Source: Vicinamibacteria bacterium
GTDB taxonomy: Bacteria; Acidobacteriota; Vicinamibacteria; Marinacidobacterales; Marinacidobacteraceae
Assembly: GCA_963668695.2 (NCBI GenBank)
Contig: CAXXLQ010000001.1
Location: 80,505 to 144,504, forward strand
DNA: 64,000 nt
Direction of reading: 5' to 3'
This document shows, in pieces, positions 22,527 through 64,000 of the stretch (the first letter of the stretch is position 1; each line of letters starts with the position of its first letter). The translations under genes and the position numbers were made by a program. The notes beneath the pieces were generated by a model. It was given only the letters and a program-made list of their open reading frames with translations, did no database searches and was not told where the DNA came from.

Positions 22527-22781
22527 CAGCCCGTGGCAAAACCCACGCGGCCCAGTTCTCCCGGTGGGGGCTCGGCTGGCGATCCATCCCGCCCGAACCA
22601 CTCCGCTTCGCTCCGTTCTTCGTTGCGTTTCGGTCGGAATACACCCGGGCCAGTTCTCCCGGTGGGGGCTCCTCCCTCACGCGCCTTGTCGGCCGGGCCC
22701 CCACCGGGAGGACTGGCCCCACCGGGAGAACTGGGCCTCACCGACCTCGGCGCTCACGTGGGTTTCACCACAGGCTGCTAG
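22523..22781. mobile_element. MITE-like modular repeat starting at the ihfB stop codon
   Basis: CTAG-CAGCCCGTGG...CCACAGGCTG-CTAG, with four copies of the 18-bp motif. Confidence 0.8.
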
Positions 22782-22900
22782 CCCGCTGCGGTTCGTGGCC
22801 TCCGGGCCGGTGGGAGAAGGCCGCGGCCTCGGCTGGAGTGCTACGGTCCGGTAAGCGCCGTTTCCAGCCGTCATCGCGGCGCGGCAGTGCTATTGGAAAC

Positions 22901-23160
22901 TGAACAGCCCGTGAATGAAGTCAAGTGGCCCGGTTCTCCCGGTGGGGGCTCGGCCGGCGATGCATCCCGGCTGAACCGCCCCCCCACCGGGAGAACTGGC
23001 GCTTCGCGTCGCTCATCGTTGCGCTTCAGTCGAAATACGCTGGGTATTCCTCCTTCGCGCGCCCTGTCAGCCGGGCCCCCACCGGGAGGACTGGCCCCAC
23101 CGGGAGAACTGGGCCTCCCCGGTCTCGGCCCTCACATCACTCCATCCACGGGCTGTTGAG
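22901..23160. mobile_element. MITE-like modular repeat directly upstream of icmF
   Basis: AACAGCCCGTG...CACGGGCTGTT termini and the shared internal modules. Confidence 0.75.
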
Positions 23161-54022: not shown

Positions 54023-54822
54023 AGGACCACGCGCTCCAGCTTGCGCGCGAAGCGGGACTGGCCCACGGCCGCAACGTAATGCGCGAATACCTGCAGGCCC
54101 GCGTCCTGGAGACGTTGCAGCGCCTCGGCGCGACCGGCCCGCTCGCCTTCTGCGGCGGTACCGCCCTCCGTTTCCTCTTCCGGCTTCCGCGCTACTCCGA
54201 GGATCTCGACTTCGCGCTCGAGGGTGACCGCGATGCCTATGACATCGAGGGCTGGCAGACGGAGGTCGCTCGCCAATTCCGCCGCGAGGGCTATGAGGTC
54301 GAAGCCGCACTCCGCGACCGCGGCGCGGTCCATGCCGCCTGGCTGCGCTTCCCGGGTCTCTTGTATGAGGCGCGCCTCGCTCCGCATCCCACCCAGAAGC
54401 TGGCGATCAAGATGGAAGTGGACACGAATCCGCCAGCGGGCGCGGTCACCGAGACGCGAACGATCCGGCGGCACGTCAGCCTCCGGCTCCGTCACCACGA
54501 TCGAGCATCGCTCCTTGCGGGCAAACTGCATGCGATCCTGTGCCGCCCCTACGCGAAGGGGCGGGATGTCTACGACCTTGCCTGGTACCTGGCGGATCCG
54601 GAATGGCCCGCGCCCAACTTTGCGTTGCTCGATGCGGCGCTGCGCCGGAGTTGCGCCTCCCGGGGTCTTCAGCCGACGGCCAAAGCATGGCGCGATGACG
54701 CGGCGCGCCGTCTGGAAACCGTTGCCTGGGAACAGGTCGTGAAGGATGTGCTTCCCTTTCTGGAGGAAGGCCGGACGATCGTCACCCGCGATGAAATACT
54801 CGCGCTTCTCCGCCAGCGCTGA
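54019..54822 (+). CDS. AbiEii-like nucleotidyltransferase toxin
   Basis: FCGGTALR...RYSEDLDF, GKLHA, KGRDVYDL; GTGA coupling with the antitoxin. Confidence 0.88.
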   Translation: MKDHALQLAREAGLAHGRNVMREYLQARVLETLQRLGATGPLAFCGGTALRFLFRLPRYSEDLDFALEGDRDAYDIEGWQTEVARQFRREGYEVEAALRDRGAVHAAWLRFPGLLYEARLAPHPTQKLAIKMEVDTNPPAGAVTETRTIRRHVSLRLRHHDRASLLAGKLHAILCRPYAKGRDVYDLAWYLADPEWPAPNFALLDAALRRSCASRGLQPTAKAWRDDAARRLETVAWEQVVKDVLPFLEEGRTIVTRDEILALLRQR

Positions 54823-54910
54823 CACCCGGAGGCGCCGAACCGTTCCGGCGGCAACGCGCCGTGATAGCCGCCGAAGAGCGGCTCTCGGTCGCCCTATACT
54901 CCGCGCCCAA

Positions 54911-56308
54911 GTGACGAAACCCGGCACCCCCGAACACCCGCTGCGGGTCGCGGTCTTCGGATCCGGCCCGACCGGCTTCTACGCAACCGATCATCTCTTC
55001 AAGGCCGCTGGGGTCACCGTGGAGGTGGACCTCTACGACCGCCTGCCGACCCCCTACGGTCTGGTGCGCGGCGGGGTGGCTCCCGATCACCAGAAGATCA
55101 AGTCGGTGACCCGCGCCTACGAGCGCACCGCGCAGAACCCGCGCTTCCGCTTCTACGGGGGCGTCGAGTTCGGGAGCGACATCCGGCTGGCCGATGTCCG
55201 GCGCCACTACCACGCGGTCCTCTATTGCGTGGGGGCGCAGGTGGACCGGGCCATGCGGATTCCCGGCGAGTCCCTCGGCAGGAGCCACGCGGCGACCGAG
55301 TTCGTGGCCTGGTACAACGGTCACCCGGACTACCGGGATCGGGAGTTCGACCTTTCCCAGGAATCGGTCGCGGTCGTCGGGGTCGGCAATGTGGCAGTGG
55401 ATGTCTGCCGGGTGCTGGCCCGTTCCGTGGACGAGCTGAAAACGACCGACATCGCTGATTACGCGCTGGAGCAGCTCGCGGAGAGCCGGATTCGCGAGAT
55501 CCACATGCTCGGCCGGCGGGGTCCGGCGCAGGCTGCGTTCAGCAATCCCGAGATCAAGGAGCTCGGGGAACTCGCGGGCGCCGACATCCGGGTCTTCGAA
55601 GAAGAAGCGGCGCTTGATGCGGTGAGCCAGGAATGGGTGGATTCCGGCGCCGACAGGTCGGCCCCGAGGAAGGTCGAGATCCTCCAGCAGTACGCCGCCG
55701 AAACACGGTCCGGCAAACTGCGAACGCTGACCGTCCGGTTCCTCGTTTCCCCAGTGGAACTGATTGCCGGCGAAGATGGTGCGGTTACCCGGGTCAAGCT
55801 CGTGAAGAACGAGCTCTACCGCAACGAACGGGGCACGGTCCGCCCGCGCGCCACCGATCATTTCGAGGATCTCGCTGCCGGTCTGGTGTTCCGTTCGGTC
55901 GGCTACCGGGGGGTCGCGCTACCCGACGTGCCGTTCCGCGATGACTGGGGAGTCATCCCGCACGCGGTCGGCCGGGTGCTCGACTCCCCGGACGGGGAGC
56001 ACCAGGAAGGCCAGTACTGCGCCGGTTGGATCAAGCGCGGTCCCACCGGGGTGATCGGCACCAACAAGCCCGACGCCCTGGAGACCGTGCGGGTGCTGCT
56101 CGAGGACGTCGCGGCCGGCAAGCACTGGCACCCGGAATCCCCGTCCGCCGAGTCGGCGGAGCGCTTCGTGGCCGAGCGCGTTCCCACCTACTTCTCGTTC
56201 GCCGACTGGAAGGCGCTGGACGCCCTCGAGGTGGCGCGCGGCAAGGCCGAGGGCCGTCCGCGGGTGAAGTTCGTGAGCGTCGAGGAGATGCAGGCCGCGA
56301 TTCGCTAG
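54911..56308 (+). CDS. Ferredoxin--NADP reductase (FprA/adrenodoxin reductase type)
   Basis: GSGPTGFY, PYGLVRGGVAPDH, GVGNVAVD, GRRGPAQ, GWIKRGPTGVIGTNK. Confidence 0.92.
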   Translation: MTKPGTPEHPLRVAVFGSGPTGFYATDHLFKAAGVTVEVDLYDRLPTPYGLVRGGVAPDHQKIKSVTRAYERTAQNPRFRFYGGVEFGSDIRLADVRRHYHAVLYCVGAQVDRAMRIPGESLGRSHAATEFVAWYNGHPDYRDREFDLSQESVAVVGVGNVAVDVCRVLARSVDELKTTDIADYALEQLAESRIREIHMLGRRGPAQAAFSNPEIKELGELAGADIRVFEEEAALDAVSQEWVDSGADRSAPRKVEILQQYAAETRSGKLRTLTVRFLVSPVELIAGEDGAVTRVKLVKNELYRNERGTVRPRATDHFEDLAAGLVFRSVGYRGVALPDVPFRDDWGVIPHAVGRVLDSPDGEHQEGQYCAGWIKRGPTGVIGTNKPDALETVRVLLEDVAAGKHWHPESPSAESAERFVAERVPTYFSFADWKALDALEVARGKAEGRPRVKFVSVEEMQAAIR

Positions 56309-56389
56309 GCGCCGAGGATCCGTCCGGCAGGGACCGCCGGCCAGTTCTCCCGGTGGACTCTCCTGGAGAATGCAAGGAGGAAGGGAGGG

Positions 56390-56576
56390 TTAACAGCCTG
56401 TGGTGGAACCCGCGTGAGCGCCGAGGCCGGTGAGGCGCCCGGCTGACAAGGCGCGTGAGGGAGGAATACCGGGTGTATTTCGACCGAAACGCAACGCAGA
56501 ACGCAGCGAAGCGGAGTGGTTCAGCCGGGATGGATCGCCGGTTGAACGCCGCGTGGGTTTCGCCACAGGCTGTTAA
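56390..56576. mobile_element. MITE-like repeat nested in the IS110 right end, TTAA at both ends
   Basis: TTAA-CAGCCTGTGG...CCACAGGCTG-TTAA. Confidence 0.8.
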
Positions 56577-56577
56577 G

Positions 56578-57273
56578 TCAGGCGGCGGATTTTGGGCTCC
56601 TGGCGGCGAAGTCCGGGTCGAAGAAGGTGCGGTGTCGCGCCATCGCGCATAACACCCGGAACTGCTGGTCGGCGATGGCGCGATGCCGCCGGGCCGTCGT
56701 CTTCCCCGCGTCCTTCAGCTTCCGGCTGTATGCCTTCACGTCCTCGTCCCAGCGCAACACCCCGCGTGCCAGGAGGTAGGCGGCCTGCTGCAGCGAGTAG
56801 GGCACCGCACGCCGCATCCGGGCCGTGTCGCGCTCTCCGGACTGCACCCGGACGGGGGCCGCCCCGGAGGCCGCTCGCAACCGGCCGTGGTCCCCGGCGC
56901 ACACCGCCTCGAATCCCCAGGCGAACAGCCGCGCCAGCGCCTTGTCTCCCAACCCCTTCCGAGACCGCAGGATGGTGACCGGATCCGGAGCCGTCGCGCC
57001 CGCGCCGCCTCCCACCGCTTCCGTCTCCGACAGCGCATCCAGGAACTGCGTCATCTGCTTCTCCGCACGCGCGATCTCCGCGTTCACAACCTCCAGCAGG
57101 GCCAACGCCGTCCGAATCGTCTCCACCGCCGCGGCGGTGGCCCCGGGCGCCACCGTCAGCGCCTCCTCACGAAACAACGCAACCACCCGGTCCGCGCTGA
57201 TCCGGGTCACCCCGTAGTGCCGCAGCAGCTTCTCCCAGGTGGAGCACCGCACCTTCCGCGCCGTCGCCGGTGT
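56578..57273 (-). pseudogene. IS110 transposase, C-terminal half only (RuvC-like DEDD domain deleted)
   Basis: ILRSRKGLG...SGAAPVRVQSG...RAIAD...AM....FDP matches the IS110 C-terminal domain. There is no N-terminal GxD motif or credible start. Confidence 0.82.
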
Positions 57274-57291
57274 CGAGCGGTCCGCCTTGCC

Positions 57292-57478
57292 GCGATGGCA
57301 GTCAAGCCCTATATTGGTGCTCGATCGGCACAACTCTCCACAGGGTGTCCCATCACGGCCATCCGTCGGGGTACTGGTCCACCACAGGTGCTTGCGGCAC
57401 CGGGGCCTCTTGGTACTCCCGGCGGATCGGCCAACCGAAGTTGATGAAGTAGGAGGCGAAACCGCCTCCTACACAACG
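57292..57478 (-). ncRNA. Putative IS110 bridge RNA
   Basis: 5' hairpin 57449-57472; stem/internal loop/hairpin 57357-57432 (target loop); second loop 57292-57356 (donor loop). Loop sequences match the element's own target and donor junctions. Confidence 0.75.
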
Positions 57479-57681
57479 CCCGTGATCCTATAGGGGGCCT
57501 GAAGACCGGCACTGCCAGCCGAAGGCTGGTGAAAGGCGGAGTGCTGAACGGCGGCAAGCGCGGGGAGTGAGGGGACCGCCGACCTCCGGTCGGCATCGCG
57601 GCCCGCAGGGCCGCGAAACGCGCAGCGGTGATGGGCTTGGTCCGACCGGGCGGCTTCCCGTAGGGGCGCACCCGTCCGCCG

Positions 57682-57994
57682 GAGGAAGAACCACGAGCTG
57701 CCCCGGGTGGCGATCACGTTCGAGTGCTTGCCGATCCATCCCAGGCCAGCCCGTTCCGCGAACGCCTTCTCAAGCAGCGGTCCGTGATCCACGAGGGTCG
57801 GGATGCGCCGGCGCGCGCCCGGCGAGCGCTCGGGCAGCAGGCCGGCTTTGATGGCGCGGGCTTGGGCGAACGCCGCAAGGGCGCGGAGCTTCGAATCCAG
57901 CACCCGGTGGTAGTCCTCGCGAGAACCCGAGACGGAATCCCTCTTCCCGGATCGCGCCCCGCAGCTCTGCCCGCTGTCTCCCGTCGTCGGCCAC
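57682..57994 (-). pseudogene. queG: Epoxyqueuosine reductase remnant
   Basis: N-terminal IREEGFRLGFS is joined out of frame to EDYHRVL...VDHGPLLEKAFAERAGLGWIGKHSNVI...SWFFL, then truncated. Confidence 0.78.
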
Positions 57995-58046
57995 GGCGAC
58001 AGCCTACCGGAGCCCCCCGAGATTTCGAATCAGGGTTTGTCGAATC

Positions 58047-58638
58047 GCTAGAGCGACATGTTCGCCCGGCAGATCCGGCTACTGCGACATGTTGGCGTCC
58101 CGCTGATCCCGGTAGTGCGACATGTTCGCGCGGCAGATCCGGCTAGTGCGACATGTTCGCGTTCCGCCGACCCTGCTATTGCGACATGTTCGCGCGGCAG
58201 ATCCGGCTAGTGCGACATGTTGGCGTCCTGCCGGTCCTGCTAGGCCGACATGTTCGCCCGGCGGAACCGGCTAGTGCGACATGTTGGCGTCCCGCCGATC
58301 CCGCTAGTGCGACATGTACATCCGGCGGAACCGGCTAGTGCGACATGTTGGCGTCCCGCCGATCCCGCTAGTGCGACATGTACATCCGGCGGAACCGGCT
58401 AGTGCGACATGTTGGCGTCCCGCCGATCCCGCTAGTGCGACATGTTCGCCCGGCAGATCCGGCTAGTGCGACATGTTCGCGTTCCGCCGATCCCGCTAGT
58501 GCGACATGTTCGCCCGGCAGATCCGGCTAGTGCGACATGTTGGCGTCCCGCCGATCCCGCTAGTGCGACATGTATATCCGGCGGAACCGGCTAGTGCGAC
58601 ATGTTGGCGTCCCGCCAGTCCTGCTACTGCGACCTGAG
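58047..58638. repeat. Tandem array of 18 units alternating 31 and 33 bp (9 x 64 bp) plus a degenerate 19th core; core GCTAGTGCGACATGT
   Basis: Cores at 58047, 58078, 58111, 58142, 58175, 58206, 58239, 58270, 58303 and so on to 58590, then 58623. Confidence 0.92.
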
Positions 58639-58810
58639 TTTCGCGGCCCGGCGGGCCGCGATGCCGGTCTGGACTCCCCCACCGGGAGAACTGGCCGGCG
58701 GTCCCTGGCCGATGCGCCGCCGTCCCTGGCCGGCGGTCCCTGGTCGGCGCGTCGCCCTCCCTGACGCCGCCTGCCACCGGATAGAGTCTCGCCCCCGAGG
58801 AATCATGCCC

Positions 58811-63580: not shown

Positions 63581-64000
63581 GCAGCCGGTGGTGGAACCCA
63601 CGCGGCCCAGTTCTCCCGGTGGGGGCTCGCCCGGCGATCCATCCCGGCGAAACAGCCTGTAATGAAACTCGCGCGGCCCAGTTCTCCCGGTGGGGGCTCG
63701 ACCGGCGATCCATCCCGGCGAAACAGCCTGTAATGAAACTCGCGCGGCCCAGTTCTCCCGGTGGGGGCTCGCCCGGCGATCCATCCCGGCCAAACAACCG
63801 GTAGTGAAACCCACGCGGCCCAGTTCTCCCGGTGGGGGCTCGGCCGGCGATCCATCCCGGCTGAACCGCGTCGCTGCGCGCCGCTCATCGTTGCGTTTCG
63901 GTCGGAGTACACCCGGGCCAGTTCTCCCGGTGGGGGCTCCTCCCTCACGCGCCTTGTCAGCCGGACCCCCACCGGGAGAACTGGGCCTCGCCCCCACCGG
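63581..64000. mobile_element. MITE-like modular repeat with four 71-bp units, running off the window end
   Basis: GCAGCCGGTGGTGGAACC start; the same units as 1757-2040. Confidence 0.8.

Follow-up and report, generated by a model that had tools for sequence, protein, structure and literature searches.

Elements of the IS110 family of insertion sequences (ISs) lack terminal inverted repeats (TIRs), recombine at a short core, reconstitute a promoter at the circle junction, encode a bridge RNA in their left end and often target repetitive extragenic palindromic (REP) sequences, as set out in Durrant et al. (2024; PMC11208160), whose reference list includes Choi et al. (2003) as well as Tobes and Pareja (2006). 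The described systems to which we compare the present locus are IS621 of Escherichia coli and ISPpu9 and ISPpu10 of Pseudomonas putida; in ISPpu10, the stem-loop beside the paired target belongs to recognition. Here we analyze a stretch of 64,000 nucleotides from a Vicinamibacteria bacterium (contig CAXXLQ010000001.1; hereafter the window), in which an IS110 element interrupts a short motif carried by a REP hairpin. We conclude that window positions 56355-57492 (minus strand) are very probably a dead copy of an IS110-group, bridge-RNA-guided IS. A preliminary description of the window had presented the element as an IS110 insertion: its IS110 identity holds, but it is not a working IS, as a 606-bp deletion has removed the DEDD domain of its recombinase.

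The element comprises 1138 bp, from 57492 to 56355 on the minus strand, at a CC core within GCCCCC^ACCGGGAGAACTGG. On that strand the left flank, ...GTGCCGGTCTTCAGGCCCCC, is followed from 57492 by TATAGGATCACGGG, and the right terminus, ...CTTGCATTCTCCAGGAGAGTCC at 56355, is followed by the flank ACCGGGAGAACTGGCCGGCGGTCCC. The letters CC are the only ones common to the left flank and the right end of the element, and TIRs are absent: the left end (TATAGG) and the right flank (ACCGGG) have no common prefix. Excising the 1138 bp, one CC included, regenerates GCCGGTCTTCAGGCCCCCACCGGGAGAACTGGCCGGCGGTCCC. Both ends read exactly as the preliminary description had given them, as does the CC common to the left flank and the right end of what it had recognized as IS110-family DNA without TIRs. 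The junction features are as follows.

57493-57510, minus strand: left target half, REP stem plus 5' part of the motif (GCCGGTCTTCAGGCCCCC); left CC core copy at 57493-57494.
56355-56390, minus strand: right end of the element, 36 bp; CC core copy at 56355-56356, -35-like TTGCAT at 56370-56375.
56330-56354, minus strand: right target half, 3' part of the motif plus REP stem (ACCGGGAGAACTGGCCGGCGGTCCC), from the junction reading.
58663-58705, plus strand: uninterrupted REP of the same type that bears the motif, used as comparison copy; reads GCCGGTCTGGACTCCCCCACCGGGAGAACTGGCCGGCGGTCCC.

Relatives of the element use the same target. Our table of insertion sites holds 17 distinct elements from four genomes: the window copy, a remnant at a second locus of the same genome (L003), three elements in G004, five in G009, six in G014 and the remnant L015. 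Three sister genomes of the genus have, in the motif, 14 full-length relatives that measure 1538-1999 bp and encode both the DEDD and the Transposase_20 domain. G004 has three full-length copies, with 75-77% amino-acid identity to the window frame, and G009 has five (68-69%); the six in G014 are at 65%, and that genome has one broken copy at 70%. Near-identical intact copies are found in G009 (five of 1538 bp) and G014 (six of 1726 bp). We found that all 15 left junctions follow ...CCCC, 14 of them GCCCCC, and that all 17 right junctions precede ACC..., 14 of them exactly ACCGGGAGAAC and the other three a version one letter off. The left flank GCCGGTCTTCAGGCCCCC|TATAGG of the window copy recurs at relative L022, and the right end is kept among relatives as CTTGC(A/G)TTCTC..GGA(G/A)AGTCC. 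We conclude that this IS110 lineage is specific for the motif. The idea that the lineage is aimed at the motif, put forward on the strength of the window alone, thus extends to all 15 left and 17 right junctions in four genomes; tabulating the flanks of the element ends revealed no copy at an unrelated site, and the full-length relatives share the ends.

The layout of the relatives is that of the IS110 group rather than the IS1111 group, the criterion being a long left end with the RNA and a short right end (PMC11208160). The left end of L016 runs for 249 nt up to the start codon (element start 679, ATG 928), and only about 25 nt follow the recombinase stop in the G009 copies. Among full-length proteins, those of L016, L024 and L011 match PF01548 at 95-104 bits and PF02371 at 31-49 bits; L016, the only relative on which NCBIfam NF033542 (IS110 family RNA-guided transposase) was run, exceeds the cut-off of that profile (141.6 vs 140 bits).

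The left end of the window copy encodes a putative bridge RNA, whose predicted fold and guide words are listed below. The guide register follows PMC11208160: a left guide reads like the top strand, and a right guide is complementary to that strand.

57276-57492, minus strand: left end, 217 nt, encoding the putative bridge RNA; 93% identical to the L022 left end.
57472-57449, minus strand: 5' hairpin of the bridge RNA (predicted fold).
57432-57413 and 57374-57357, minus strand: segments closing the target-binding loop (predicted fold).
57356-57350 and 57298-57292, minus strand: segments closing the donor-binding loop (predicted fold).
57402-57408, minus strand: putative left target guide AGGCCCC, equal to the top strand of the left target ...CAGGCCC-C.
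57377-57384, minus strand: putative right target guide TGGTGGAC (RNA UGGUGGAC), complementary to the core and right target.
57333-57339, minus strand: putative left donor guide GGAGAGT (RNA GGAGAGU), identical to the 7 nt of the right end that directly precede the core.
57308-57314, minus strand: putative right donor guide ATATAGG (RNA AUAUAGG), in which TATAGG is the reverse complement of CC-TATA.

An RNAalifold consensus of ten left ends consists of two internal loops, each with a closing stem and an inner hairpin, and has 32 pairs, six of them compensatory; both outer stems are nearly invariant, which leaves most of the pairs uninformative. The window RNA folds with a minimum free energy of -96.3 kcal/mol (z = -2.78). 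A near-invariant scaffold, GCCGATCCGCCGGGAG ... CGACGGATGGCCGTGATGG, was found in 16 of the 17 loci scanned, which include more distant clades. In relatives the right target guide reads CGGTGGAC; its reverse complement is GTCC-ACCG, composed of right-end tip, core and right target. The right end also carries a -35-like TTGCAT and the left end TATAGG/TAGGAT, putative hexamers of a circle-junction promoter.

Across clades, the left target guide covaries with the left flank (AGGCCCC, GAGCCCC, ACCGGAGG and GGCGTTCC). The pairs outside the subgroup of the window copy are these:

G009 and G014: guide GAGCCCC, insertion after ..GGAGCCCCC.
L011: guides ACCGGAGG and ACGCCGGA, insertion between GACCGGAGGTC and CGGCGT.
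L018 and L019: guides GGCGTTCC and GCTTGG, insertion between CCGGCGTTCC and AAGCCG.

When four target classes were compared, the longest words common to a guide half and its cognate target were 6-8 letters for the left target guide and 5-8 for the right; against words of the other target classes they were mostly 3-5 (left) and 3-4 (right), with a few higher. Guide words in the 5' bridge RNA match the target and donor halves, which supports the inference in the preliminary description that the lineage is programmed for the motif. Within one genus, the left target guides of sister sub-lineages differ exactly as their insertion sites do, and it is such co-variation that underlies the bridge-RNA model; the lineage provides a clear instance in nature of bridge-RNA programming beyond the Proteobacteria. 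By analogy with IS621, the RNA would be made and would guide recombination. The pairing register at the core is an assignment by word matching, and should be taken as putative.

Only part of a recombinase gene accompanies this RNA. The sole Pfam match in the 251-amino-acid frame at 56578-57333 is to Transposase_20 (PF02371; 22 bits vs a cut-off of 21.3, residues 120-203), and the frame has no match to PF01548, the N-terminal, RuvC-like DEDD domain, at E values up to 0.1. It scores 37.2 bits on NF033542, below the cut-off of 140, and covers positions 177-342 alone of that 343-position profile. Compared with L022 (1988 bp), the window copy retains element positions 1-217 at 93% identity and the remaining open reading frame (ORF) at 82%, and 606 bp are absent between them; across the part they share, the remnant is 76% identical to the L022 protein.

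56578-57275, minus strand: what is left of the recombinase gene, 231 C-terminal codons and the stop, with the Transposase_20 domain and its conserved QSG serine.
57269-57286, minus strand: deletion junction, between 57276 and 57275, where 606 bp of relative L022 are gone.

With this segment went the ribosome-binding site, the start codon and about 190 codons, those of the whole DEDD domain among them: the true start of the relatives (M..FVGIDWGE) and all four DEDD positions fall in the absent segment. In the alignment, the invariant S-G column is preserved. The initial residues of the 251-amino-acid frame, ...NIGLDCHRGKAD, are a translation of the conserved 3' part of the left-end RNA; this accounts for about the first 23 codons of the 251-codon frame, and the start codons of the relatives lie downstream. 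For the same reason we rejected the string NIGLDCH at the start of the frame as a vestige of the first DEDD aspartate: the relatives show it to be the conserved 3' part of the RNA, with the real start downstream. The 251-codon ORF should consequently be annotated as a pseudogene fragment whose 5' part is an RNA gene, not protein. Two smaller changes, a C-to-T in the right target guide relative to all five close relatives aligned and a changed base in the right end relative to active-looking relatives, fit decay.

Downstream of the recombinase stop codon, and ahead of the 36-bp right end, lies a miniature inverted-repeat transposable element (MITE).

56391-56575, minus strand: MITE of 181 bp (56393-56573) with its two flanking TA copies; TIRs ACAGCCTGTGG...CCACAGGCTGT.

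The MITE has TIRs, TA on both sides, many copies and no coding capacity. The genome holds 199 near-full-length copies, with termini (A/G)CAGCCTGTGG and TA at both sides, and the first base of the TIR covaries between the ends (A..T or G..C). The dozens of genome matches to positions 955-1141 of our 1201-nt query correspond to this nested repeat. The nested MITE is not present in the 3' regions of the relatives; the truncated second locus, L003, bears the same one. We considered whether the 3' non-coding stretch could be a guide RNA of the IS1111 type and rejected this, as it is the 181-bp MITE, with its TIRs, TA and 199 copies, and is missing from the 3' regions of relatives. Subtracting the MITE and adding back the 606 bp gives a length of about 1561 bp, near the 1538 bp of the G009 copies. 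The interval from recombinase stop to right end seems to be permissive for nested repeats. The passenger DNA there ranges from about 25 nt in G009 through about 210 nt in G014 (L024) to about 340-470 nt in G004 (L014, L022 and L030), where it includes inverted GTGGGAAGGGTGGGAAGGG...CTTTCCACGCTTTCCACA modules. Copies of the MITE often abut head to tail, sharing ...GGCTGTTAACAGCC....

We next consider the other copies in this genome. The left-end 14-mer (up to one mismatch) has two genome matches, the window locus and its duplicate on contig C4, and the right-end 22-mer (up to two mismatches) has three: these two and C4:793858, where the right flank is again CC|ACCGGGAGAACCGG. The duplicate (C4:310815-312017, listed as a 100%-identical match) is not an independent second insertion. 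It lies on a stretch collinear with contig C1, which bears the window: the collinear part of C4, 304-421 kb, is about 99.5% identical to C1, and matches of 2 kb or more with 98% identity or better cover 78.6% of C1. C1 is probably a second haplotype or strain retained in the assembly, and the C1/C4 duplication means that copy counts for this genome are inflated. The C4 allele differs by a 2-bp insertion that breaks the recombinase frame; the same GG insertion is present in a contig of public run X1 and is not in the X8 or X13 contigs. The sole other locus, L003 (C4:792.7-793.9 kb), has lost its left end and about its first 123 codons and carries an in-frame stop and a frameshift; it ends ...GGAGAGTCC|ACCGGGAGAACCGG. 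L003 keeps ORF sequence that is missing from the window copy and bears the same MITE, which indicates that both loci derive from a longer ancestor that already contained the MITE.

No intact recombinase of this clade was found in the genome, and a genome scan with the conserved RNA scaffold returned only the window locus, with its duplicate, and L011. L011 (C4:482.1-483.9 kb) is the single intact IS110-family gene of the genome and encodes a 415-amino-acid recombinase (PF01548, 97 bits; PF02371, 52 bits) along with its own bridge RNA. Its element lies in a different REP class, between GCCGACCGGAGGTC and CGGCGTTCCC. Relatives of L011 are multi-copy, with eight matches in G008 and six in G004. 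In the absence of an intact clade recombinase, the window copy cannot move on its own.

It could still be a non-autonomous mini-IS110, with usable ends and bridge RNA, that is moved in trans by the L011 recombinase, or whose RNA redirects the L011 enzyme to the motif. The left end, the right end and all four guide words are kept, and the scaffold is common to both elements, including the invariant GCCGATCCGCCGGGAG and GGCCGTGATGG; furthermore, the IS621 bridge RNA acts in trans (PMC11208160), and ISPpu10 is described as trans-acting. The L011 protein, however, is just about 36% identical to the window frame, which aligns with its residues 192-409. The deletion form is confined to one locus; L003 retains ORF sequence lost here, and so is not a transposed version of the window copy. 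The right target guide and right end are altered relative to active-looking relatives, and of 84 genomic sites that match both target guides, only the window site is occupied. We therefore regard trans-mobilization of the window copy as unlikely.

We judge it very improbable that a protein reduced to Transposase_20 has been domesticated and kept, together with the RNA, for a host function. Although the frame is open in the window allele, retains the conserved QSG serine region and belongs to a locus whose left-end junction is bridged in runs of two studies, the C4 allele and the X1 contig carry the frame-breaking 2-bp insertion, L003, the paralogous remnant, is interrupted by a stop and a frameshift, and the ribosome-binding site and native start codon are gone. 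That this is an intact, autonomous IS110 element can be dismissed with near certainty, for despite a 251-codon open frame over most of its length and canonical-looking ends and flanks, it has no PF01548 match, scores 37 vs 140 bits on NF033542 (positions 177-342), lacks 606 bp and begins its frame with about 23 codons of bridge RNA, and in IS621 replacing the conserved catalytic residues with alanine abolishes recombination (PMC11208160).

We now return to the reading of the locus as a dead, bridge-RNA-guided IS and to the history of its site. The downstream plus-strand gene (54746-56308) has orthologues in 14 of the 15 other genomes of the genus searched. In G008, the orthologous intergenic REP reads GCCGGTCTGGAGACCGGCGGTCCC and contains neither the motif nor the IS. 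Evidence from public runs takes the form of assembled contigs. In X13, one contig with about 95% identity to the flank passes directly from 56338 to 57496, with 71 letters on its shorter side; this joint skips 1157 bp, which corresponds to the IS (1138 bp) and 19 bp of the motif. Contigs of X8 and of the RNA-library run X15 cross the occupied left junction with 31 letters or more on either side; X15 leaves most of 56613-57330 without cover. The X1 and X13 contigs at this junction, with under 31 letters on one of their sides, were left out of the bridging count. Joints from 56355/6 to 57591-57598 were disregarded, as their sides measure 18-26 letters and they probably derive from other copies of the repeat.

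These observations suggest the following history. The motif, 18-19 bp long, would itself have been added to a REP hairpin loop before the IS110 insertion. An ancestor of about 1.56 kb would then have recombined at the CC core into ...GCCCCC^ACCGGGAGAACTGG, leaving no terminal repeats and no duplication beyond the core. Later damage would include entry of the MITE into the IS between the stop codon and the right end, the 606-bp deletion and the changes in the right guide and right end. We infer, as the order of events, REP hairpin, motif in its loop, IS110 in the motif, and MITE and deletion in the IS, and likewise that the window copy is immobile.

Several points weigh against this reading. 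The assembly is 91.7% complete with 9.3% contamination, and an intact copy may have gone unassembled. No public-run contig has the site with the motif retained and the IS absent, no joint of 1138 bp is among those listed, and none of the listed contigs bridges the right-end junction by at least 31 letters. When the 2-bp GG insertion of the C4 allele and run X1 is absent, the 251-codon frame is open. At the core, the left target guide matches through the first base only, its next base being G vs the core C, and the left donor guide ends before the core; all four IS621 guides include the core (PMC11208160). Rfam 15 gave no match on the L001, L003 and L011 left ends at E values up to 1, although Rfam may hold no bridge-RNA model. 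Finally, a single RNA-library contig (depth 5) covers 57331-57774, and DNA carry-over is possible; at best, this X15 contig hints weakly at transcription.

The motif itself is exceedingly common. With up to three mismatches, the 20-mer GCCCCCACCGGGAGAACTGG has 38 matches in the window, including the interrupted half-site, vs 0.03 expected, and none of 100 shuffles reached 38; words of the motif are the most frequent k-mers of the window at k = 12, 14, 16, 18 and 20. It is thus the most abundant short motif in the window, for which the preliminary description had given about 40 copies. The 4.10-Mb genome contains 962 exact copies of the 20-mer, or 1646 when up to three mismatches are allowed, and 1288 exact copies of the 18-mer CCCCACCGGGAGAACTGG (31 in the window). 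The 12-mer AGGCCCCCACCG, which is specified by both target guides of the window copy, occurs 84 times, its variant GAGCCCCC 669 times and CCCCCACCG 1549 times. The suggestion that the genome is dense with landing sites therefore calls for qualification: exact 18-mers number 1288, but only 84 sites carry the word of both guides. Beyond this genome, the 18-mer is present in all 15 other members of the genus searched, in 5 to 631 copies (fragmented assemblies probably under-count), in five of nine other genomes of the family and, for two further families of the order, in none of 16 genomes; a reversed control of the 18-mer gave zero in every genome. Exact 18-mers and clade copies compare as follows.

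G000 (the present genome): 1288 18-mers, no intact clade copy.
G004: 631 18-mers, three clade copies.
G009: 83 18-mers, five clade copies.
G014: 45 18-mers, six intact clade copies.
G001: 564 18-mers, none found with the window-element query.
G008: 525 18-mers, none found with the window-element query.

From these results, we conclude that IS load does not track motif load: the present genome has about 1300 target motifs yet no working element, so the abundance of the target is no predictor of IS load.

MITE length classes are about 18 bp apart (about 186, 205, 223, 241, 258 and 278), and the CCCCACCGGGAGAACTGG unit is found at no fewer than eight internal MITE positions, in both orientations and sometimes in tandem. 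By its placement, the 18-bp unit looks like an inserted module. It is possible, if rather doubtful, that CCCCACCGGGAGAACTGG is a spreading micro-insertion of REP loops and the MITE family, restricted to one bacterial family, and that the IS110 guides (AGGCCCC, GAGCCCC and GGCCCC) have been retuned by each sub-lineage to its variants. If so, an RNA-guided transposon lands on another mobile repeat, in an arrangement of four layers: REP, motif, IS110 and MITE. Recent movement of the motif between the haplotigs was not supported: none of 23 gaps of at least 8 bp is a clean motif unit, in a comparison of small divergence. Two 18-bp gaps among them hold unrelated sequence and one 15-bp gap overlaps part of the motif. 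The motif as an excision footprint of the IS110 element was rejected on inspection, the unit being unlike either element end.

In the window, places with the 18-bp unit include 147-209, 1781-2360, 22552-23112 and 63607-63984. At 1781-2013 the motif recurs four times at 71-bp spacing, and likewise at 63607-63839, inside longer tandem units. The motif, rather than the IS, resembles the small dispersed repeats of cyanobacteria (reportedly described by Elhai and co-workers in 2008), which are said to be units of about 20 bp that sit within other repeats and each other and whose mechanism of spread is reportedly not known. The likeness lies in a unit of about 20 bp within repeats; the phylum and the sequence differ, and here the evidence consists only of presence or absence at homologous positions.

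Other features lie beside the IS. A frame matching part of QueG (tRNA epoxyqueuosine reductase) continues into REP sequence and adjoins the IS, and is probably a truncated pseudogene; a tandem array follows.

57691-57903, minus strand: QueG fragment, TIGR00276 positions 118-159 of 337, 42.7 bits vs a cut-off of 200.
58046-58636 (approximate): tandem array with a period of about 64 bp, from self-matches offset by 64 bp.

Arrays resembling the latter are found at C4:2554-2556 kb, 2887-2888 kb and 977 kb.

Compared with the known systems, the lineage resembles IS621 in several respects. Like IS621, its intact relatives combine DEDD and Transposase_20 domains, lack TIRs, recombine at a 2-bp core and insert into REP sequences, and they have a long left end with a predicted two-loop RNA containing target and donor words and with -35/-10-like hexamers that would be joined across the right and left ends. 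Unlike IS621, the core is CC rather than CT, the left guides do not seem to extend past the first core base, the insertion site is a motif of 18-19 bp in the REP loop (also found inside MITEs) rather than the REP stem itself, and the window copy is without its DEDD domain. As with ISPpu9 and ISPpu10, multiple copies all lie in one class of repetitive extragenic sequence; as with ISPpu9, which has an extra module downstream of its transposase gene, relatives have additional DNA of 25 to about 470 bp between the stop and the right end. The phylum, the target and the core differ from those of both P. putida elements. REP targeting is already known for bridge-RNA IS110 elements (IS621, PMC11208160; ISPpu9; ISPpu10). 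What is new here is a CC-core IS110 member in a different phylum, and should a CC-core bridge recombinase be wanted, the intact G009 and G014 relatives are the candidates.

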